The translations under genes were made by a program, and so were the position numbers. This document shows positions 405 to 12,590 of a stretch of DNA of 12,590 nt, piece by piece. The notes under the pieces are model-generated. The model saw nothing but the letters and a program-made list of their open reading frames with translations, was not told where the DNA came from and did no database searches. Position 1 is the first letter of the stretch. Each line of letters begins with the position of its first letter. The DNA comes from Candidatus Thorarchaeota archaeon (GTDB taxonomy: Archaea > Asgardarchaeota > Thorarchaeia > Thorarchaeales > Thorarchaeaceae), in contig JBHLRP010000073.1 in assembly GCA_048882485.1 (NCBI GenBank), forward strand, positions 1 through 12,590, in the 5' to 3' direction.

Positions 405-429
405 CAGCTCAAGCAATGGCTCCCAATGT

Positions 430-441
430 GAGAAGTGGTAG
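430..441 (+). repeat. intergenic direct repeat copy (GAGAAGTGGTAG, one AAG unit shorter)
   Basis: Matches the 4533 and 11650 copies with a 3-nt deletion. Its flanks (cagctca...atgt upstream; atg..ccatt..tctgaat downstream) also resemble those of the 4533 copy. Confidence 0.6.
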
Positions 442-487
442 ATGCTCCATTGATTTAGTTTCTGAATCCTTCAGTGGTTTTTCAAGG

Positions 488-1199: not shown

Positions 1200-1233
1200 T
1201 CTACGTCATGGAAGCGATTCACAGAAGGCGTTC

Positions 1234-1253
1234 GAAGAGAGCGATAACGGGTG
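1234..1253 (+). repeat. degenerate intergenic direct repeat copy (GAAGAGAGCGATAACGGGTG)
   Basis: Ungapped alignment to 11651-11670 gives 11/20 identities, and every mismatch is a transition, so the purine/pyrimidine pattern is identical. Confidence 0.35.
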
Positions 1254-1323
1254 ACCGGGTATCGACGAGCTTATGTGAAACTCCATCACTCTCATGTCAG
1301 CGCTTGATTTGGGGATTTAGATT

Positions 1324-4300
1324 ATGTACGAGCACTTCGAACCGGTCGACCGAGTCTTCGTTGACCGTGAGGAGCATCTTGATTGGATGTCAGATGCGTT
1401 ACAGCGCTGCAAAGAACAGAGTGTTGTTCTTCATCTTCGCGGCATTGGCGGGATTGGAAAGAGCTCACTCTTGGACCACTGGAAGAACACGATTGACGAT
1501 ACTGTCTATCTTGACTGTGAGAGGTACACTGAGTTCTACGACCGTTTGAATGTCATTGCTAAGGGAGCTGTCCACCTTGGCGTGAATCTGCAGCGTTTCG
1601 ACGTTCTGTGGCAGATTCGACTGCGGTTTGTCGAGGGACTAGAACCGGTCAAAGAGGAGGGCCGAGAATGGGCCAAGGAAATCGTGATGGCAATACCGTT
1701 CATCGGCTCTCTGGCAAGTATCGGCAGTGCTATTGGTGCAGTTGGGGCCAAGGTGGGTCCAAAACTGAAAAGAAAATATGGTGAGCTGGGAGAATGGCTC
1801 CAAGCTCGCCTTGGTACGGACTACATCCAGCGACTGCTCGAAATACTCTGGAAGGAGCCAAGACGAGCGGAGTTTCTCTTTCTTGATGCGTTGTTGGAGG
1901 ACTTGAGCAAACGCAAGACCTTTGAGAGGCCGATCGTGTTCCTGCTGGATCACTCAGAGCGTGTCGACAGCGAAACATGCCGATGGCGATATCGTAGTCG
2001 AGATATCACTGAAACCGAGCTCTGGTATGTATTCTTGACTTCACTCCCCAATTGTGTCGGAGTAATGGCAAGCAGACAAGCCCTGACTGAGGAAGCTAGA
2101 GAGGAACTCGAGATTGAGGAGACCGAGCTCACAGAGCTTGGGAGAGAGAGTTGCGTCGAGCTCCTTGAAAAGCGTGGGGTGACGGAACGTGAGATTCAGG
2201 ATAGAATCGTCAGTGTGAGTGGTGGAAACCCCTTTGTGATAGGAGCGATGTGTGACGTTGCAGATTCTGCCAACCTCTCCCTGAATGATGTGGAAGACCT
2301 GCGGGCCGATACCCTCGAAGCAGTGCGGCTTAAGACATGGAGAAGACTCTTCAGCGAAACACAAGATCTCCTGCGACTAGTAGAAAGAGCAGGCCTTCTC
2401 CCCTCTTTCAATCGAAGGACCATGACTATCATTGCACCAGACATGAGAACAGACCACTGGGATAGACTGATTCGCCTGAGTTTTGTCAAGTACAGAGATG
2501 ACGGTACTTGGGTGCTGCACGACCTTGCAAAGGAGCTAATTGTTGCCGAACTTGGCCCACGGCTTCAGGAATCGACGGATGAGGTGGCCGAACTTCTCGA
2601 GAAGGCTTCGACAGATGAGTCGGACTACACCCTTCTAGGATTGGCTCTATCAATACTAGCACTAGCCGAAGAGAGTGACGCAGCGGCAAGGCTCGGCTCC
2701 ATGGTTTCGGACCTTATATGGAGCAACGATTTCTCTGATGCTCTAACACTTGTTGACGCCGCGCGAATCGACACGAAGAGCGGCCAAGCGGTCATACAGG
2801 GGCTGAGAGGAGGCGTTCTGTGCCAAATGGCCAGGGTTGCTGATGGTGAGCATGCGTTTCGGGAGGCACTTGAGATATTTCGAGAGCTCGAGGAGAGGAG
2901 CCCTGATGATTTCCTAGTGCATTTTGCACGAACGCTGCATTTCCTTGGTTTATTGCTCACAAGAACTGGGAGAAACTCGGAGGGCATTGCCTCTTTCCAG
3001 GAGTCGCTAAAGATCTTCAGGAGCCTTAATGAGAATACACTGGGTTTCCATCCACAGGACATTGCTTGGACTCTCCAAACCTTCGGCTATGCCCTGATGA
3101 AAGTCCACAGACTAGAAGAGGGCGAGAACGCATTTCGAGAGGCACATCGCCTATTCAAGAAGTCCATCCCGACAGCATCATACAACCCCATGATAGGTAT
3201 AACACACTCTCTCCGAACCATAGGTATAGTGCTATGCCTCACAGGTAGGCCTCTAGAGGCTGAAGAAATTCATCGAAACGCTCTCAAAATCTATAGGGAA
3301 CAGATTAACAAAGGAATGGATGACGTTTCTCTCCTACGTCACCTCTGCTTCTGCCTTACCACATATGCAGACATACTGAGAATGATGGGCAGGCCATATG
3401 AGGCGATAGGTCCCCACCAAGAGGCAGTGCAATTGGCCAGAGATCTAGTCAAGAAGGAGCCAGAGGCGCTCGCGGTTTTGGTCCCATTCACTCTCGCCGG
3501 CTATGCGCTACCACTAAGACAGATTGGAAGATACTCTGAGGCGGAGGAGGCTTATCTAGAGTCGATTGAGATATCCAGACAACTGGTGGAAGAAGCGCCT
3601 GATTTATTCTTGAAATTCCTCGCCGTGACTCTCGTTGATTTCGCAGTTCTTCTCCGACAGACTGGCAGAGTATCAGAGGCCGAAGAGAAATATCGTGAGG
3701 CGCTCAGAATCCATAGAGAACTTGCCGCCAAGGAGCGGGGTCAGCACGACTACGAACTGCCTTGGAATCTGAACAATCTCGCAGTTCTTCTCAGAAAGAC
3801 TGGGCGGTCAGCAGAAGCCGAAGAGACGTACAGAGAGGCGCTTGGCATCGCGAGAGATACCAGCCGAGAAGCACCGGAGGCCATCTTTCTCATTGAGCCT
3901 GTTGCCACCATTCTCAGCAACCTCGCAGTTCTTCTTAGACAGACTGGTAGAATATTAGAAGCCGAGGAAGCCATTCTAGAGGCGCTCGAGATCAGAAGAC
4001 AACTTGCCCAGAAGTCTCCCGAATACTTCCTGCATCGTGTTGCCACGACGCTCAACAATCTCAGTGTCCTGTTGGCCGAATCAGGAAGGATGGTGGAGGC
4101 TGAGGAGGCGTTAAGAGAAGCACTTCAGATTCGCAGAAACATTATTGAGAAGTCATCTGGCCTGTACCAACCTTCTGTTGGGTCAACTCTCAACAACCTC
4201 GCTGTCCTTCTCAAGCGATTGGGTCGAACATCTGATGCAGAGAGCGCATATCGTGAGGCGATTGATATTGGTGAAGAGCTAGTATCAAGGGCACCGACTG

Positions 4301-4485
4301 TCTATAAACATGAACTAGGGAGAACCCTCAGTAACTACGCGCTTCTCCTCTCAGAAATTGAAAGCACAGATACACTCCAGAAGATCATGACGAGATTAGA
4401 GAGGCTTGGCATCAAGAGCTTGCCAGAGAGTGAGGAGTGGTCAGAGGAAGAGGAGGAAGAGGCTTGGGCGCCAGGGGCAGCCTGA
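1324..4485 (+). CDS. STAND-class P-loop NTPase (NB-ARC/AAA_16-like) with C-terminal TPR array (1053 aa)
   Basis: FVDREE pre-Walker motif, Walker A GIGGIGKS, Walker B IVFLLDHSE, sensor-1-like VGVMASR, GGNP (GxP) motif and winged-helix LHD motif. Then many 46-48 aa TPR-like repeats (LNNLAVLLRxTGRxxEAEExYREALxI) and an acidic tail. Confidence 0.9.
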   Translation: MYEHFEPVDRVFVDREEHLDWMSDALQRCKEQSVVLHLRGIGGIGKSSLLDHWKNTIDDTVYLDCERYTEFYDRLNVIAKGAVHLGVNLQRFDVLWQIRLRFVEGLEPVKEEGREWAKEIVMAIPFIGSLASIGSAIGAVGAKVGPKLKRKYGELGEWLQARLGTDYIQRLLEILWKEPRRAEFLFLDALLEDLSKRKTFERPIVFLLDHSERVDSETCRWRYRSRDITETELWYVFLTSLPNCVGVMASRQALTEEAREELEIEETELTELGRESCVELLEKRGVTEREIQDRIVSVSGGNPFVIGAMCDVADSANLSLNDVEDLRADTLEAVRLKTWRRLFSETQDLLRLVERAGLLPSFNRRTMTIIAPDMRTDHWDRLIRLSFVKYRDDGTWVLHDLAKELIVAELGPRLQESTDEVAELLEKASTDESDYTLLGLALSILALAEESDAAARLGSMVSDLIWSNDFSDALTLVDAARIDTKSGQAVIQGLRGGVLCQMARVADGEHAFREALEIFRELEERSPDDFLVHFARTLHFLGLLLTRTGRNSEGIASFQESLKIFRSLNENTLGFHPQDIAWTLQTFGYALMKVHRLEEGENAFREAHRLFKKSIPTASYNPMIGITHSLRTIGIVLCLTGRPLEAEEIHRNALKIYREQINKGMDDVSLLRHLCFCLTTYADILRMMGRPYEAIGPHQEAVQLARDLVKKEPEALAVLVPFTLAGYALPLRQIGRYSEAEEAYLESIEISRQLVEEAPDLFLKFLAVTLVDFAVLLRQTGRVSEAEEKYREALRIHRELAAKERGQHDYELPWNLNNLAVLLRKTGRSAEAEETYREALGIARDTSREAPEAIFLIEPVATILSNLAVLLRQTGRILEAEEAILEALEIRRQLAQKSPEYFLHRVATTLNNLSVLLAESGRMVEAEEALREALQIRRNIIEKSSGLYQPSVGSTLNNLAVLLKRLGRTSDAESAYREAIDIGEELVSRAPTVYKHELGRTLSNYALLLSEIESTDTLQKIMTRLERLGIKSLPESEEWSEEEEEEAWAPGAA
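3641..3990 (+). repeat. DNA-level tandem TPR-coding repeats
   Basis: TCGCAGTTCTTCT-x-xGAxAGACTGG recurs at 3641, 3779 and 3923 (spacing 138 and 144 nt). TATCGTGAGGCG occurs at 3691 and again near 4249. Confidence 0.8.
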
Positions 4486-4532
4486 AATACACTCGAGTTG
4501 TCACAGCTCATATGACATTCTCTAGCATGTCA

Positions 4533-4550
4533 GAGAAGAAGTGGTAGTGG
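4533..4550 (+). repeat. intergenic direct repeat copy (GAGAAGAAGTGGTAGTGG)
   Basis: The first 15 nt are identical to 11650-11664, and the copies share 17/18 identity over 18 nt. Confidence 0.8.
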
Positions 4551-4610
4551 ATGAGTGACCATTTCATTATCTCTCTGAATTTGAGTCTTGTACCAGTTCT
4601 GTAGTCCATA

Positions 4611-5552: not shown

Positions 5553-5581
5553 ACCTCGCGGGCCTAATGTTTCTCCTGTGC

Positions 5582-5587
5582 TATATA
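5582..5587 (-). promoter_or_regulatory. putative archaeal TATA box for the cysteine-synthase-like gene
   Basis: TATATA about 30 nt upstream of the ATG at 5552, a spacing consistent with a leaderless or short-leader archaeal transcript. Confidence 0.4.
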
Positions 5588-5689
5588 CTGTTCGAATCTG
5601 GCTCTAATTTACGGAGCAGCTAGACAGTAGTTCTGTTTTTTGCACCAGTTAGTTGATGAATGACTAGAGTGAATTCCTACCAAGTATCT

Positions 5690-6193
5690 CTAGTGCCCGG
5701 TCCTAAGTCTGTGCACTATTAGGCCCACATACATCACCACGCCAAGAACCCCCATCCAAACGCAGAGGCTATACACCTCCATTGAGAGAGCGGGATTGTA
5801 TAACGGATTCGTTGTCAGCGGATAGAATGGACGGATATCACTGTATAACGGAGAGTCCAGTAAGACATGGAGTATGGTGCCCAGGACACCTGCAAGCACG
5901 AACAGCCTTAGACTCGTCCTGCTATCTGTTTCCAGCAAGAGAATCTTGTAGAGTGGATACAAGTATCTCTCAAGAAGTAACATGATATATCCAATCACAA
6001 GACTCACAAGGAACGCCAGTAGGAATGTATGGAAGTATCCATGTAACGGATATTCCAGTCCGAACATAATCACTAGGAATGGCTCAACATCAAGCATTAC
6101 ATTGGCTAATATGAAGGTAGGAGTGTGCATGTACTCTCTCAGAGGAAGCCCAAGGCACACTGCTGGACCGAGATGAAAGGGCGTGAATGGCAT
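5690..6193 (-). CDS. membrane-bound metal-dependent hydrolase (YdjM/DUF4184-like, 167 aa)
   Basis: MPFTPFH N-terminus, DVEP, HGYFHT, HVLLD and PFYP motifs in a multi-TM protein. Start moved from 6274 to the ATG at 6193 because GGAGTGA lies just upstream. Confidence 0.8.
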   Translation of the reverse strand: MPFTPFHLGPAVCLGLPLREYMHTPTFILANVMLDVEPFLVIMFGLEYPLHGYFHTFLLAFLVSLVIGYIMLLLERYLYPLYKILLLETDSRTSLRLFVLAGVLGTILHVLLDSPLYSDIRPFYPLTTNPLYNPALSMEVYSLCVWMGVLGVVMYVGLIVHRLRTGH

Positions 6194-6342
6194 TGAAAAC
6201 TCACTCCTTGACTCATCGATGATGCAATCCACAGCAAATGTGGCTTGCGCTCTCAAATACCTTCCTTTAGGCAAGTCTCTGTACCATTATGATGGTGAAT
6301 GGTCAACGAGTACGGATGGTTTCAAATCAGGAAAGATGAATG

Positions 6343-6358
6343 GAAGTGATAGCGAGTA
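6343..6358 (+). repeat. intergenic direct repeat copy (GAAGTGATAGCGAGTA)
   Basis: 14/16 identical to 11655-11670, and both mismatches are G>A transitions. Confidence 0.6.
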
Positions 6359-6384
6359 TGATGGGTTGCATTCTAAAGTCCCTA

Positions 6385-9234
6385 TCACCTACTCTCTCGC
6401 TTTCTGAGTCCTACCCAAAGCATCACAACGATGACAATAGCTCCTACTCCCATGCCGATGATGAACGTCATCAGAGGATCAGGGTGTTCCGTTGGAACAA
6501 TCGCTGAGTTTGATGTTGTAGTCGTGGTGGTCGTAATTGTAGGAATAACCTCAACTAAAATTGCAGCCCATATTGTATTTCCATAGATATCATTGACGTA
6601 CACCCTTAATCCGTATATTCCAGGCTCAAGAATGCCTATAGTGCGAACTCGTCCAGTCCAATCGATTGTGAAGTGAACTGTGTCATCGACCCACCACTCC
6701 GCAATACCGGATAGGTCTGTTGCGTTGAAGTCACAGATAAAACGTGTACCATATACCAGTGTCTGATTCTCAGGCTGCTCACTCCATATTGGCGGCTTCG
6801 TGTCGACCACCGTCACAGTGAAGATTGTGCTGATGATATTGTTTGATGTATCATTCACCCAAACCTGCACAACATAGGTTCCCACCTGTAAGATTTCTAT
6901 TGCCATCATCAATCCACCCTTATCAACGGTGAAGTGCATGGTGTCATTAACCCACCAACTATCTAGCAATAGATCTGTGGCATTTAGGTCAAAGACGAAG
7001 TCGTTTCCATATTCAACAATCTGATCTTCAGGCACCTCAGTCCACACTGGTGATGTAGTGTCGACCACCGTTACTGTGAAGGTTCCATTGAGTGTGTTCC
7101 CCGATGTGTCATTCACCCACACCTGTATTCCATAGACACCTGGAGGCATGATTCCAGCAGTTGAAACTACTCCATCGGCATCAACAGCAAAATGCACGGT
7201 GTCGTTAAGCCACCACGTGTCTAGTAAGAAATCCGTTGCATTCAGCCTGATTACAAAGCTCTCTCCAACCTCAATAGTTTGGTTTCTGGGTGGCTCTATC
7301 CATTCAGGACGTGTAGTATCAATTACTGTCAGAGAGAAGACTTCCGATAATGTGTTACCTAGTGTATCATTGACAAAGACCTGTAGTCCGAACACTCCTA
7401 GAAAAAGGACTGTGTTATTTGCAATCCTTCCAATTTGGTCGATATCGAAATTCACTGTGTCATTCAGCCACCAAGTATCAAGGCCAGGTGGCGGTGCAGT
7501 TGCATTCAAGTCGTAGAGAAAATCGTCGCCAAGCTCTAGTAGCCTGTTGGCAGGAAGCTGCAACCAACTTGGAGGCGATCCAGGTGGTAGCATGAGAGGG
7601 TACAAGTCAACATTGCTGAGAAACGTGTAGGGAATATCTCCTACCCCATCCTGATTCGCGTCAGGGCCACTATAGTCTGACCAGTAGTTGTGGTCAAAGA
7701 CATTGCTAATTGCATTATCATAACCATTGAGGGGGGAGTTATATGCAAAGACGTTCCACCGAATGTAGTTGTTCGCAGTATCTGAAAAGAGAACGATGCC
7801 ATTGTCATTGCCGCTGAACGTGTTCTGAGTCAGGTTATTATTGTTGGCCATTGTGGCGTGAATGCCATAGTTATTACTTGTGCAAGTGTTGTTAATCATA
7901 GTGTTGTTGTTCGCATTCATAAGAAGTACTCCATAGTTGCTGTTGCTGCAGGTATTGTTCTCAACAGTGTTGAAGCTAGATGATTCAATAAAGATGTCAT
8001 GTTGGGAGGCACCCCTACAGGTGTTGTTGACTAGAAAGTTAGAATCGGACCACCGTAGATAGATGCCGTTGTTTCCACCGCCAGTAGAATTATTGTTGGC
8101 AATGATGTTAGAAGTGGATGAATCTAGATTGATGCCATCCCAGCTATTACTACGGCACAGATTGCCAGTCACATTGTTAGAATCTGAAAAAGAGATTGTT
8201 ATGCCATTACCATTGCTGGAGCATGTGTTGTTGGCGATAGTATTGGAAGTGGATGCATCCAGATAGATACCATAAGCATTGTTACTCGAGCAGATGTTGT
8301 CAGTCACATTATTGAAATTCGCGAAATATAGCCGAATCCCATCTTCATTGTCGTTACAGATGTTATTGATCACACTGTTGGAGTCGCCTTCTATGTAGAT
8401 ACCTAAGTTGCTACTAATGCAAGTGTTATTCGTCACTGTATTGGTGTTGGATCCTTGTATGTGGATGCCAAAGCTATTGCCAATACAGGTGTTGTTACTC
8501 ACAGTGTTGGATCCAGCCCCATCTACCCAGATTCCTAATGTGTTACCATTACAGGTATTATTAGTCACAATATTGAAACTTGATGAGAATAGTTCGATAC
8601 CATCGCTGTTGCCATTACAGGTGTTGTTGATTATTGTAATGGAGCTTGACATATCTATAGAGATGCCGCTAGTGTTGATGTTAGAGGTATTGTTGACTAA
8701 AGTGATTGAATCACTCATCTGCATTAAGATGCCTATAGTATTGTCAGTGCAGTTGTTGTTGTCTACAATATTAGAACTGGCTTCCAACAGATAGACACCA
8801 TAGCTGTTTCCTGTAATGGTATTATTGATGAGTGTACCATTACTGACATTGAACAAGTAGATTCCTGCGCCTATAGTGGCACCAGTGAGAATGCAGCTGC
8901 GGACTATGAAGTGCACCTGTGTGTTGCTGATAGAGATACAGTCTCCCACTATCCCGCCACGATCAATCTCCAGATTCTCAATAATGAACGGATTTCCTAC
9001 TGTGCCATTGCCAGCCCACCCCTCGGCAGACGCAGTCGAATTGAAGTTGCTGTCGCCATTAATACTGATTGGCCCATGAGGAGTGCCTGAACCAACTCTA
9101 ATTCCTTCTTCTGGTCCTGAACTAAGCGCCGTTGATTGATGAATCGTTCCACCAAGACTCGCAACAGACGCCATGGTCAATAAGAGGGTCACTAATGAGC
9201 CTAAGACCCAGCGAGTTCCAGTCTTTCCATGCAT
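6385..9234 (-). CDS. cell-surface protein: signal peptide, NosD-like right-handed parallel beta-helix, four Ig/cadherin-like repeats, Thr-rich linker, C-terminal TM anchor (949 aa)
   Basis: Hydrophobic leader and HGPISINGD cap. About 22-aa repeats GIxLxxSxxNxIxNNTCxxN, then NYWSDY..DANQDGVGDIPY. Four 86-88 aa repeats (PxW..P.NQ..E.G..F..DLNATD...WW.NDT..F..D..G...G.YG.QVWVNDT.GN), TTTTTT, a TM segment and RKRESR. Start moved to 9234 because GAGGAG lies 9 nt upstream. Confidence 0.85.
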   Translation of the reverse strand: MHGKTGTRWVLGSLVTLLLTMASVASLGGTIHQSTALSSGPEEGIRVGSGTPHGPISINGDSNFNSTASAEGWAGNGTVGNPFIIENLEIDRGGIVGDCISISNTQVHFIVRSCILTGATIGAGIYLFNVSNGTLINNTITGNSYGVYLLEASSNIVDNNNCTDNTIGILMQMSDSITLVNNTSNINTSGISIDMSSSITIINNTCNGNSDGIELFSSSFNIVTNNTCNGNTLGIWVDGAGSNTVSNNTCIGNSFGIHIQGSNTNTVTNNTCISSNLGIYIEGDSNSVINNICNDNEDGIRLYFANFNNVTDNICSSNNAYGIYLDASTSNTIANNTCSSNGNGITISFSDSNNVTGNLCRSNSWDGINLDSSTSNIIANNNSTGGGNNGIYLRWSDSNFLVNNTCRGASQHDIFIESSSFNTVENNTCSNSNYGVLLMNANNNTMINNTCTSNNYGIHATMANNNNLTQNTFSGNDNGIVLFSDTANNYIRWNVFAYNSPLNGYDNAISNVFDHNYWSDYSGPDANQDGVGDIPYTFLSNVDLYPLMLPPGSPPSWLQLPANRLLELGDDFLYDLNATAPPPGLDTWWLNDTVNFDIDQIGRIANNTVLFLGVFGLQVFVNDTLGNTLSEVFSLTVIDTTRPEWIEPPRNQTIEVGESFVIRLNATDFLLDTWWLNDTVHFAVDADGVVSTAGIMPPGVYGIQVWVNDTSGNTLNGTFTVTVVDTTSPVWTEVPEDQIVEYGNDFVFDLNATDLLLDSWWVNDTMHFTVDKGGLMMAIEILQVGTYVVQVWVNDTSNNIISTIFTVTVVDTKPPIWSEQPENQTLVYGTRFICDFNATDLSGIAEWWVDDTVHFTIDWTGRVRTIGILEPGIYGLRVYVNDIYGNTIWAAILVEVIPTITTTTTTTSNSAIVPTEHPDPLMTFIIGMGVGAIVIVVMLWVGLRKRESR
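6544..7575 (-). repeat. four tandem 86-88 aa extracellular beta-sandwich repeats
   Basis: Conserved Trp codons of the PxW motif at 7564-7566, 7300-7302, 7042-7044 and 6784-6786 (spacing 264, 258, 258 nt). Confidence 0.85.
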
Positions 9235-9406
9235 AGGTGATTTCTCCTCAGCCGCGATGGATGCGTTTGAGGGTTGTCCATGCGTGTCCAAATACCAGAA
9301 TTCAATGCAGCATTTCTTTCAGCGGTTTCCTTCGCAACTTCCTCAATATTTCGTCTTCTTCCACTTATTAATGAGCACTGAGGAAATCGCAACGCTGTTT
9401 CTGATT

Positions 9407-9428
9407 GATGAAGTGGCTACGGGTAGAT
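9407..9428 (+). repeat. intergenic direct repeat copy (GATGAAGTGGCTACGGGTAGAT)
   Basis: 18/22 identical to 11652-11673 without gaps. It lies between divergently transcribed genes. Confidence 0.6.
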
Positions 9429-9573
9429 GGCGGGCTTCGGAAATCTTATGTCGAAACCCGGCACATAGTTCTAGTTCAGAGTGTTGTCATAGCTATGGCA
9501 CAGCTTCAAAGCTCTCTGTTCGTCTGAGAATGCAGCGACTTCTTACGTTCCAACACTAGTAGGAGGAGAATAT

Positions 9574-11607
9574 GTGGGAAGAAACCAACTGACCGGCACC
9601 ATATTGATAGTGGTTATGATTGTGGGAGCTGGCTCTGTCCTTGCCTTCGCCACTCAGCCTACTAGACCACCAATTGACTCGTATGTATATGAGATGGAAC
9701 CATATAATGGGTACTTTATCGTGTCTATCGACCCTCACTATCATTATGGCGACGATGGAAGTATTGCAGTGATTGAACAGGTCTACGAAACCCTGTATAC
9801 CTATCCATGGGGAAGCGGCGAACGTGGAGACCATCCTGAGAGCACTCCAACCATACCACTCTTGGCTGCGGGTCCACCGACGATATCCGAGAACGGTACT
9901 GTCTACACTATAGAACTGAGGCAAGGCGTCACCTTCCATGATGGGACTCCATTTAATGCCAGCGCAGCAGTGTGGAACTTCAAGAGAGCCATGAAGATGG
10001 GTCTGCGTTATGCCGAACTGATCAAGGGTGGGACGGAAATGAAGGATGTTGCCCGGGCATACGGCTCGACTTCAGATGAGTTCAAGGATGTGTTTGAAGC
10101 CTGGGAAGCCACAGACGCAGTAGAGGCTAGCGGTACATATGAAATCACCTACAGACTGGAAGAAGCGGTCGCATTCTTCATTCCAGTAATGACCGACCCA
10201 ACTTTCTGCATGATGAGCCCTACCTTCACCGAGAAACATGCAGTGAATCATAGCGATTCATTCGGAGTAGAATATGGCGAGATATTCACCTACATGTGCA
10301 ACCACACTTGTGGGACTGGCCCCTACAAGGTGGTTGAGTTTAAGAGAAGTGAGCACGTCCGCATGACACTCAACCAGGACTACTGGAGAGCTGAAGCGAC
10401 TGAGGCTACGATTGCACCTCCACTCTATGCTGGCTCGATAAGGGAGATTTGGTTCAAGGCTAACGAAGACCAGACAAGCATGAACCTGAACCTCAAGAAT
10501 GGAGTCGCTGACGACACTTACTGGCCGTCATCGCATGCAGACGAGATCTATGACAGCGTCACACTTGGTAGCAAAGACCCTAACATCTTCTTCAGAACCG
10601 GTGGCGTGTCCTCTTACATGAGTGGTTTCCGGTTCCAGATGGGAATAATGAACTGGACTATCGGGTCGAACACCTTTGAGATTTACTCCCCATTCCACTG
10701 GAGAGGACTCAGGAAGGCCGTGGCGTATCTCCTCGACTACGATGCCTATATCCAATCGGTAACCAGTGGCTGGAACGTCAAGGCACAAGGACCGATTCCG
10801 GCCTGGATGCCTTACCATAACTCGAGTCATTGGACTGAGCATTATGAACCAGAGATTGCAGTCGGGTATTGGAATGACGCCATGCAAGATCCCGATTTCG
10901 TGGCTGTCATGAACGCAATCAGGGGCAAGATCCTACTCCCCTACCATGTCTTCCAGAACCCCCTAGAACTGATCTCGTTGCTGCTGAAGGACGGTTTCGA
11001 TGCCATGAAACTACTGCCTGAGATGAACACCACGGGATTGGACTACGAACCAATGATTACGCCTGCGCCCTCCTATATTGGCAGTCCTCGTGAAGAGCCG
11101 CTGCTACTGTCAGATCAATGGATTGCTAGGTACGCTGACCCTCATGACCTCGTATTCTACTACCTACACTCCAGTGGTTATTATGCGCCGTCGCAGGGCT
11201 ACAACAACAGTGTGATGGACGACTTGATCATGCAAGGCAGGGCTGAAGCCGACCCAGTTGTCAGACAAGGCATCTACAACCAAATTCAGGAACTAGCTGC
11301 CTACGCCCAACCATTCCTGGGGCTGTACTCCCCCAAGGAGTTCACCACGTTCGGAGCATGGCTGAAGGGCATTGGCATGAGATACCAGCCAATGTCCTCG
11401 TACTACTACATCTACCACGTGTACAAGGATTATACGACAACGGACACGACGACCACACCCGGAGATCAGACCACAACGGGCACAACAACCTTCACATCGC
11501 CAGAGCTTCCCGACATCGGCTCACTAGTGCCTATCTACTTTCTAGCAGGACTCGGATGGGCAGTGGTGGTTGTTATTCTCATTGCATTTCTAAAGTGGGA
11601 ATCTTGA
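9574..11607 (+). CDS. ABC transporter substrate-binding protein, family 5 (peptide/nickel type), with N-terminal TM, Thr-rich linker and C-terminal TM (677 aa)
   Basis: IDP, VYETL, PLLA, YTIELRQGVTFHDGTPFNA, GTGPYKV, LRKAVAYLLDY, WIARYADP, YNNSVMDDLI and RQGIYNQIQ motifs of SBP_bac_5. SD AGGAGG at 9561-9566 and a GTG start. Confidence 0.9.
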   Translation: MGRNQLTGTILIVVMIVGAGSVLAFATQPTRPPIDSYVYEMEPYNGYFIVSIDPHYHYGDDGSIAVIEQVYETLYTYPWGSGERGDHPESTPTIPLLAAGPPTISENGTVYTIELRQGVTFHDGTPFNASAAVWNFKRAMKMGLRYAELIKGGTEMKDVARAYGSTSDEFKDVFEAWEATDAVEASGTYEITYRLEEAVAFFIPVMTDPTFCMMSPTFTEKHAVNHSDSFGVEYGEIFTYMCNHTCGTGPYKVVEFKRSEHVRMTLNQDYWRAEATEATIAPPLYAGSIREIWFKANEDQTSMNLNLKNGVADDTYWPSSHADEIYDSVTLGSKDPNIFFRTGGVSSYMSGFRFQMGIMNWTIGSNTFEIYSPFHWRGLRKAVAYLLDYDAYIQSVTSGWNVKAQGPIPAWMPYHNSSHWTEHYEPEIAVGYWNDAMQDPDFVAVMNAIRGKILLPYHVFQNPLELISLLLKDGFDAMKLLPEMNTTGLDYEPMITPAPSYIGSPREEPLLLSDQWIARYADPHDLVFYYLHSSGYYAPSQGYNNSVMDDLIMQGRAEADPVVRQGIYNQIQELAAYAQPFLGLYSPKEFTTFGAWLKGIGMRYQPMSSYYYIYHVYKDYTTTDTTTTPGDQTTTGTTTFTSPELPDIGSLVPIYFLAGLGWAVVVVILIAFLKWES

Positions 11608-11649: not shown

Positions 11650-11673
11650 GAGAAGAAGTGGTAGCGGGTAGAT
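11650..11673 (+). repeat. best-preserved intergenic direct repeat copy; minus strand ATCTACCCGCTACCACTTCTTCTC, tRNA-iMet 3'-end-like
   Basis: Reference copy of the repeat. The minus strand contains CCCGCTACCA followed by a pyrimidine tract. Confidence 0.8.
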
Positions 11674-11729
11674 TGCAAAAGCGTTTAACGGAAGACTTAA
11701 CTCAAATACCTCTAAAATACGGATTTGAC

Positions 11730-11747
11730 CTATTAGATATCTAATAG
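11730..11747. promoter_or_regulatory. perfect 18-bp palindrome CTATTAGATATCTAATAG, putative operator
   Basis: CTATTAGAT/ATCTAATAG are exact reverse complements. The site is about 110 nt upstream of the second SBP gene. Confidence 0.6.
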
Positions 11748-11856
11748 TCTAGAGCTCCACCTGTCATCGGAGAACGGAAGCCCGTCACCCACTTTGTTCT
11801 GTGAAGTCCTAGGTCAGTAGAAACTAGGAGATTGGTAGCCAAGAGGGAGGAGAATA

Positions 11857-12590
11857 ATGGGAAGAAATCAAATGATTTCCATAGTAATGATTGTAATCGT
11901 GATTATGGGAGTTGGGGTTGCCTTCTTCTTCATGCCTCAGCAGACCAGACCCGCTCCTGATGTGTATGTCTATGAAACGATAGACAATCCCCTCCATTTC
12001 GACCCACACATTGCCTACGACAGAGGGAGTGGTGAGATAATTGATCAATGCTACGAAACGCTCTATACCTACCCGTGGGGAAGTGGCGAACGTGGGGGCT
12101 ATCCTTTAGTTGAACCGACCGTACCACTCTTGGCCGCAGGTCCGCCGACCATAACCGAGAACGGCACCGTCTATACGATAGAACTCAGGCAGGGCATCAC
12201 GTTTGCGGACGGGACTCCATTCAATGCCAGTGCAGCAGTGTGGAACTTCAAACGAGCCATGAAATTGCACCGCCTCATTGACTATACTATCGCCGAACCG
12301 ATAAAGGGTGGACTGGCAGTGGTAGCCGCTATTAGTTCCGGCCCGACCTCACCTGAGTTCATCGCTGCGTTCGAGACTTGGGACGCTACAGACGCAGTAG
12401 AAGCGACCAGCACCTACGAGGTCACCTACAGACTGGAAAAAGCGGCTGCATACTTCATACCAGCAATGACCTACAACGTTGGCTGCATGATTAGCCCCAC
12501 ATTTGCGGAGAAGCATGCATCGACTCCTGGAGCCAAATACGGAGTGGACTACGGCGAGAAGTTCACCTACATGTACAACCACACTTGCGG
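11857..12590 (+). CDS. second family-5 ABC substrate-binding protein, paralogue of 9574..11607 (partial, runs off window)
   Basis: GGAGG at 11846-11850 and ATG at 11857. Translates MGRNQMISIVMIVIVIMGVGVAFFFMPQQTRPAPDVYVYETIDNPLHFDPHIAYDRGSGEIIDQCYETLYTYPWGSGERG...ELRQGITFADGTPFNASAAVWNFKRAM..., open to the end. Absent from the ORF track because it has no stop codon in the window. Confidence 0.9.
   Translation, partial: MGRNQMISIVMIVIVIMGVGVAFFFMPQQTRPAPDVYVYETIDNPLHFDPHIAYDRGSGEIIDQCYETLYTYPWGSGERGGYPLVEPTVPLLAAGPPTITENGTVYTIELRQGITFADGTPFNASAAVWNFKRAMKLHRLIDYTIAEPIKGGLAVVAAISSGPTSPEFIAAFETWDATDAVEATSTYEVTYRLEKAAAYFIPAMTYNVGCMISPTFAEKHASTPGAKYGVDYGEKFTYMYNHTC

Follow-up and report, generated by a model that had tools for sequence, protein, structure and literature searches.

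Displaced copies of the initiator tRNA 3' end as probable junctions of an array of small gene blocks in an archaeal genome of the Thorarchaeota

Genomic islands and tandem arrays that are anchored at tRNA and tmRNA genes and built by tyrosine integrases were reportedly described by Williams in 2002. Integrons consist of IntI, attI and arrays of attC cassettes, and have also been reported in Archaea. Archaeal tRNA-anchored integrative islands have been reviewed (PMC8371274), and in the Thermococcales, Int-pTN3 and integrated elements drive chromosomal inversions (PMC5495485, PMC8371274). In Asgard archaea, the elements HeimV1, HeimM2 and the aloposons are located at tRNA and rRNA genes (Wu et al., 2022, PMC8813620).

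Here, we describe an array of short repeats and gene blocks beside the gene for tRNA-iMet, of which no published description was found in the literature searched. Compared to a classical att site, the repeats share the identity with a tRNA 3' end, but no integrase gene was found and the copies are not located downstream of, and in the same orientation as, the intact tRNA in the two relatives G005 and G002. The locus is probably an integrase-free, tRNA-iMet-anchored array of one- or two-gene blocks, in which the 3'-end copies serve as recombination junctions and the orientation results from a flip of the tRNA. The evidence consists of a specific match in sequence, linkage to the tRNA, the coincidence of copies with junctions, occupied and empty sites, and an inversion in genus g17.

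The analyzed window is one whole contig (C73) of 12,590 nt from G000, a 3.96-Mb archaeal MAG of 157 contigs that is 90.5% complete. The tRNA genes of G000 encode the CCA end, many contain introns and tRNA-Sec is present. Relatives carry the public labels Thorarchaeota, Hermodarchaeota or Promethearchaeota. The closest relative, G005, is a Hermodarchaeota-labelled MAG whose orthologous segments have 90-94% identity to the window (94% in the region of the repeat copy at 11650), and G004 is a closed Thorarchaeota chromosome.

The repeat and its identity with tRNA-iMet

The focal repeat at positions 11650-11678 had been described as the 3' end of an initiator tRNA gene plus its downstream tract, and the letters quoted for the minus strand (11678-11650) match the sequence exactly. 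Since tRNA-iMet is absent from the G000 assembly, its sequence was taken from relatives. A weight matrix of the repeat was built solely from 14 array copies in five genomes, with the tRNA-iMet ends of G002, G003, G005 and G024 left out. These four 3' ends scored 21-29 bits, as compared to at most 6.5 bits for each of the 29 tRNA 3' ends of G000. In an ungapped alignment, 17 of 17 bases of the 11650 repeat are identical to the tRNA-iMet gene of G024, covering the acceptor strand, A73, CCA and 6 nt of the trailer, and the 18-nt core has a single mismatch to the tRNA-iMet gene of G003. The specificity of the matrix and these matches bear out the proposed identity. The reservations that had accompanied it, namely a likeness of only about 10 nt and a spacing to the T-loop that is 3 nt short, can be dropped, as the 17-base match requires no 3-nt gap. 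Because the match reaches into the trailer, the copy is derived from the tRNA gene rather than from the mature tRNA. The sequence located 5' of the T-stem strand in the 11650 copy is non-tRNA, and several tRNA trailers in G000 resemble the pyrimidine tract of the motif.

At this site, the plus strand complements the final 16 nt of the tRNA except for one mismatch and is situated in front of peptide-transporter genes, as might be expected of an element that acts at the RNA level, either through a plus-strand transcript complementary to the tRNA-iMet 3' end (a primer-binding site or T-box) or as a minus-strand tRNA-like RNA or terminator. We consider such a function exceedingly improbable, and it is largely refuted. 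The match runs into the trailer, which the mature tRNA lacks, and the complementarity is broken at two to four positions in paralogous copies; complementarity of the primer-binding-site or T-box type was rejected. ARAGORN identified no tRNA in the window and the Rfam tRNA model gave no match at the motif at E-values up to 1, with no cloverleaf detected by either. A generic terminator was also rejected, since the 7-mers of the motif occurred at the expected frequency in 2262 downstream gene flanks, in which T-rich words were enriched 3-4 fold. Likewise, a structured leader formed by long-range pairing of the motif with a segment ~130 nt downstream was discarded, as the pairing partner is conserved at loci where the motif is absent.

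The plus strand was also evaluated as a direct copy of the tRNA 5' end with its leader, but only the 7-nt acceptor word fits (13 of 26 positions, versus 21-22 of 26 for the inverted 3' end) and this solution was rejected for this locus. A search with a 15-nt word against all public genomes returned chance matches in bacteria only.

The copies of the repeat in the window are as follows (scores are from the weight matrix; the SBP genes are listed further below):

427-450, minus strand: repeat copy, ortholog of a 26-bit copy in G005 (L016:2490-2515)
4533-4558, minus strand: repeat copy of 34 bits, between the STAND-TPR gene and the PALP gene, at the right junction of a 3.3-kb indel
6338-6363, minus strand: possible degenerate copy of 9.8 bits, at chance level and unproven
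9405-9430, minus strand: repeat copy of 26.6 bits whose acceptor part is changed at three positions, bordering the SBP-A promoter module on its upstream side
11650-11678, minus strand: focal repeat of 37 bits, a displaced tRNA-iMet 3' end with the T-stem 3' strand, acceptor 3' strand, A73, CCA and pyrimidine trailer

Three of the additional copies that had been claimed, at 4533, 9407 and 430, were recovered (as 4533-4558, 9405-9430 and 427-450), but the one at 6343 corresponds to the 9.8-bit sequence, and matches of at least 10 bits occur by chance at ~0.5 per shuffled window. A "degenerate" copy near 1234 was not detected. The homology to G023 ends ~48 nt from 6338-6363. The first 15 nt of the 4533 copy are identical to the 11650 copy, and orthologous copies are present in G005 (L016:3304), G002 and G011. 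The copy at 427-450 has lost 9 nt internally, between short direct repeats. The 11650 copy is located 45 nt past the SBP-A stop codon and upstream of SBP-B, inside the 249-nt gap between both genes; its ortholog in G005 is L016:11019-11044, and the homology to G005 stops at 11676. Homology to G005 picks up again at the 9405-9430 copy, which has a position upstream of SBP-A that is equivalent to that of the 11650 copy relative to SBP-B.

The copies in the window exceed the number expected by chance. The 19-nt core, allowing for up to three mismatches, was found twice in the window as compared to 0.01 expected, and 3 of the 12 exact copies of the 10-nt word at 11655-11664 in the genome are on the 12.6-kb contig. 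Outside of the contig, only 8 positions in G000 scored 16 bits or more, which is about the number expected by chance.

Gene blocks, junctions and promoter modules

The blocks, genes and upstream regions that adjoin the copies are:

1227-4530, plus strand: block with the STAND NTPase-TPR gene, absent from G005 and adjoining the 4533 copy at its right junction
5558-9404, minus strand: 3.8-kb block absent from G005 at this place that encodes a beta-helix/NosD-like protein and a YdjM-like membrane protein, with its right junction inside the 9405 copy
9431-9573, plus strand: putative promoter/leader module of SBP-A, with a BRE/TATA-like box (~9435-9455), a 16-nt palindrome (~9484-9499), a 7-bp hairpin and a Shine-Dalgarno-like GGAGG
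9574-11607, plus strand: SBP-A, the family-5 solute-binding component of an ABC transporter; its ortholog in G005 is the third of four paralogs arranged in tandem
11679-11856, plus strand: upstream region of SBP-B, divergent, with a TATA-like box (~11689-11703) and a perfect 18-nt palindrome (11730-11747), without a match in G005
11857-12590, plus strand: SBP-B, a paralog of SBP-A, cut by the contig end

We compared the window to G005 and found that three of the five homology breakpoints are at the edge of or inside a repeat copy (4530/4531, ~9407-9419 and 11676/11677), for which the probability by chance was estimated by hand at ~2e-5. The third breakpoint marks the start of SBP-B past the 11650 copy. 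Only one end of the STAND-TPR block has a recognizable copy. In G012, a 1.15-kb block with a small ORF and a NUDIX gene contains a repeat copy at each end, while the same two flanks in G010 surround a single hybrid copy, which represents the empty site. Direct repeats thus flank an insert in one genome, and a single copy marks the empty site in its relative. The att-like boundary role that had been suggested for the copies is in agreement with these comparisons, in that copies are found at junctions of block gain or loss both between G000 and G005 and between G012 and G010.

The cargo between the copies is unrelated (PALP, STAND-TPR, beta-helix, CAAX protease, NUDIX and SBP genes), is encoded in both directions and has promoters of its own, and no mobile-element genes were found in the gene blocks. 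In G023, G011 and G024, the copies flank a CAAX protease, the PALP gene and others. Small ORFs that adjoin the copies encode a TIGR04076-family protein and small membrane proteins. The STAND NTPase-TPR gene is located at 1324-4485, and G010 has a homolog with 71% identity next to its equivalent array. Repeats with a 66-nt period form a long run at 7796-8830 within the beta-helix/NosD-like gene (6385-9291, minus strand).

The SBP paralogs are 75-84% identical to each other. The module of ~140 nt in front of SBP-A (9431-9573), which would provide its promoter, is recovered at many other loci in the genus (L019-L046), with up to 7 modules per genome, before genes for products with a membrane or signal segment at their start. 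The module may be the operator of a regulon. Upstream of SBP-B, the palindrome of the common module is replaced by the one at 11730-11747, which suggests a different regulator for this gene.

A promoter box is located at a fixed or near-fixed distance in 8 of the ~15 copies, and this spacing could indicate that the repeat has a regulatory role instead. Seen in that way, the repeat would be an activator or repressor site of the SBP promoters with a merely coincidental likeness to tRNA-iMet, to which the location of all copies in intergenic regions would also conform. This is very unlikely, as the promoter module is found over 20 times in the genus without the tRNA-like repeat, about half of the repeats have no adjoining promoter, and the specificity for tRNA-iMet and the physical linkage to its gene are each improbable by chance.

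The module follows 8 copies at near-constant spacing and is often found elsewhere without a copy, from which it follows that the copies at 9405 and 11650, as well as four copies in G005, have also been spread by tandem duplication of the SBP block. Att-like integration is thus not the full account of how the copies originated that it had been taken to be, since 9405 and 11650 were also propagated along with the SBP genes and their promoter. Tandem duplication could be extended to the whole array, if one ancient inverted tRNA end became fixed beside an SBP promoter and was multiplied by such duplications and occasional unequal crossing-over only, as an inert relic with no role of its own. The equivalent positions of 9405, 11650 and the four G005 copies upstream of paralogous SBP genes, and the free decay of the acceptor part among copies, are consistent with this scenario. 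We nevertheless regard it as unlikely, because copies also flank unrelated genes without the SBP promoter module (PALP, STAND-TPR, NUDIX and CAAX protease), because the copies in G011 bear a trailer variant of the tRNA in G011 itself, which suggests continuing exchange, and because the same type of array recurs in other genera. The latter was seen in a class-wide survey of 87 genomes, which were scored for a 14-nt tRNA-iMet end; many of these contain 2-7 clustered copies as compared to 0-1 in the controls, and the clustered ends are co-oriented in most.

Location and orientation of tRNA-iMet

The tRNA-iMet gene could not be identified in the G000 assembly, neither by ARAGORN in the window and in the whole genome, with and without introns, nor by pattern searches for the 5' half, the anticodon arm, the T-arm and the promoter. 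In G005, the order of genes at the locus is PALP, four tandem SBP paralogs with a motif copy before each, tRNA-iMet, RpoE/Rpb7, PIN, aIF2-gamma and S6e, with 115 nt between the last SBP paralog and the tRNA-iMet gene, which is located 2.4 kb to the right of the ortholog of the 11650 copy. Another contig from G000, C108, starts ~150 nt past the position equivalent to that of the tRNA in G005 and matches G005 with 93% identity over 5.4 kb. The synteny with G005 and the start of C108 place tRNA-iMet in linkage with, and to the right of, the window. A linkage of the copies and tRNA-iMet within 10 kb has a probability of ~0.3% by chance.

In both G005 and G002, the intact tRNA-iMet is encoded on the plus strand, inverted relative to the copies, and the array is on the 5' side of the tRNA. 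A minimal array is present in G002, with a TIGR04076 gene, a repeat copy, one small gene, the promoter and tRNA-iMet in the same inverted relative orientation; the first 17 bases of this copy agree with the consensus, after which it diverges. No further copies were found behind the tRNA in G009, G011, G024 and G004. The preliminary description had predicted a tRNA-iMet gene to the right on the minus strand, and held that an oppositely oriented gene would speak against it. By synteny, the linkage and the location to the right are as predicted, but the strand in G005 and G002 is not, and a simple attL/attR series is refuted by that same standard.

Several relatives have a tRNA-iMet gene with two introns that was missed by ARAGORN. 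The introns are in the D-loop and T-loop in G003 (L074, ~12057-12205), and in the D-loop and on the anticodon side in G041 (L204, 204-347) and G042 (L205, 1384-1523). In G003, the promoter is separated from the true gene start by a degenerate copy of the tRNA-iMet 5' end, which is situated ~55 nt before that start (L074, ~12000-12016). In G005, a 10-nt word from the D-arm recurs 3' of the tRNA as both arms of a hairpin (L016, 13511-13520 and 13551-13560). In G000, G002, G009, G010, G011, G012, G023 and G024, contigs tend to end at or just upstream of tRNA-iMet, or the gene is absent. A repeat-rich and possibly invertible locus may be the cause of the contig breaks and the missing tRNA-iMet in most genomes of the genus.

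We also compared G041 and G042 from the sister genus g17, whose common left flank terminates in a 3'-end copy in minus orientation. In G041, an intact minus-strand tRNA-iMet ends with this left copy, and a fragment in plus orientation is located past the promoter. In G042, the reverse arrangement of body and promoter places the intact tRNA-iMet on the plus strand and leaves the left copy as the fragment. The inverted segment of ~190 nt comprises the tRNA body and promoter between inverted 3'-end copies (G041 207-418 corresponds to G042 1523-1312 reversed), and the tRNA is intact in both genomes. This comparison demonstrates that an inversion between inverted 3'-end copies flips the tRNA and yet keeps the gene whole. 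Both orientations of a segment between inverted repeats were observed in genus g17 only, and a dedicated invertase was not seen, in that no Resolvase domain was identified in G041 or G042. For the present genus, the layout in G005 and G002 is what would be expected if the tRNA had flipped beside an array that was built behind a minus-strand gene.

Six-frame searches for the Phage_integrase domain (PF00589) gave no match in G000, G005, G010 and G023, while the same search was positive in 14 of 14 control genomes. The Resolvase domain (PF00239) was not matched in G000, G005, G002, G041 and G042, with positive results in 12 of 14 controls. The genomes in the recombinase searches were 73-95% complete; in the whole of G000 (90.5% complete), neither domain was found, and hence not even a recombinase of the Xer type was seen. 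The single LAGLIDADG match in G000, in a frame of 709 aa, is on another contig and unlinked to the array. No recombinase or nuclease was tied to the array by these domain searches.

These results bear on whether the copies are classical att sites, that is, attL/attR scars of serial insertions by a tyrosine integrase into the 3' end of a minus-strand tRNA-iMet to the right. The 3' ends of tRNA genes are the usual attB sites in archaea and bacteria, and these may be as short as the acceptor end and may extend past the gene (PMC8371274). The copies form direct repeats, one site has been identified in both its occupied and its empty state, and the tRNA is linked and to the right. Even so, we regard serial integration as quite unlikely. 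Besides the lack of Phage_integrase and Resolvase matches in genomes searched alongside positive controls, the blocks hold an ordinary gene or two and no mobile-element genes, the copies in G005 and G002 point the opposite way to the intact tRNA, and the trailer is present on every copy, whereas serial integration would keep it on the last copy only. Overall, the earlier reading is partly supported: it was right on the identity with tRNA-iMet and on the linkage, and wrong or incomplete on the strand and on the integrase, of which none was found in G000 or G005.

A mechanistic model and comparison with known systems

Our preferred model of an integrase-free array suggests the following. Insertion of DNA at the 3' end of tRNA-iMet would push the old ends away and thereby generate displaced copies. 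Blocks would be gained, lost and re-joined at these copies, and blocks with a promoter of their own, such as the SBP genes, would be amplified in tandem along with their copy. At this locus, the body and promoter of the tRNA were most likely flipped by recombination between its own 3' end and an inverted copy, which would leave the array inverted and on the 5' side. The copies may recombine to this day. Short repeats could act as junctions merely because they are used by ordinary homologous recombination. It is also possible, although we put forward this part of the model tentatively, that the spare 3'-end copies are the working sites of a candidate site-specific enzyme that inserts, removes and reorders single-gene blocks and flips the tRNA body with its promoter, always with an intact tRNA.

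If the copies are active sites, Asgard archaea would hold an integron-like system for the storage and exchange of accessory genes that needs no recognizable integrase, with a cargo that here includes peptide-transporter binding proteins, a STAND NTPase and surface proteins. Such a system would be tied to the one tRNA that cells cannot do without, and would have a bearing on how genes move and genomes expand in those archaea that are most closely related to eukaryotes. The sequence of ~26 nt offers a concrete target for finding the missing enzyme.

As in tRNA-anchored islands, the repeats are copies of the 3' end of a tRNA gene and bound accessory blocks beside that tRNA, and an occupied site has one block and one repeat more than an empty one. 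Unlike these islands, no integrase was found in the array or in the genome, the blocks contain single ordinary genes without mobile-element genes, every copy bears a trailer, and the array is inverted and on the 5' side of the tRNA. Integrons likewise have cassettes of mostly one gene, a short recurring site in between and a content that varies among close relatives. The array differs from integrons in that neither IntI nor a tyrosine recombinase domain was found, its site stems from a tRNA gene, and the cargo points both ways with promoters of its own. No hairpin or palindrome resembling attC was conserved around the copies as judged by eye; a 7-bp inverted repeat surrounds the 11650 copy and not the others.

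The Asgard elements share with the array the Asgard hosts and the site-specific insertion beside tRNA or 16S genes, and HeimM2 contains a homing-endonuclease-like gene instead of an integrase (PMC8813620). However, HeimV1, HeimM2 and the aloposons are single large elements of 8-44 kb with hallmark genes, as compared to single-gene blocks parted by copies of the tRNA tail. In the Thermococcales inversions, as in the array, recombination between inverted tRNA-linked repeats flips the DNA in between. The repeats in the Thermococcales are at least 104 bp, an integrase has been identified and large chromosome segments flip, whereas the repeats described here are ~25-30 nt, no recombinase was found and the flip can be confined to the tRNA body and promoter. 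The nearest published kinds to the array are tRNA-anchored tandem islands, integrons and the integrase-driven inversions of the Thermococcales.
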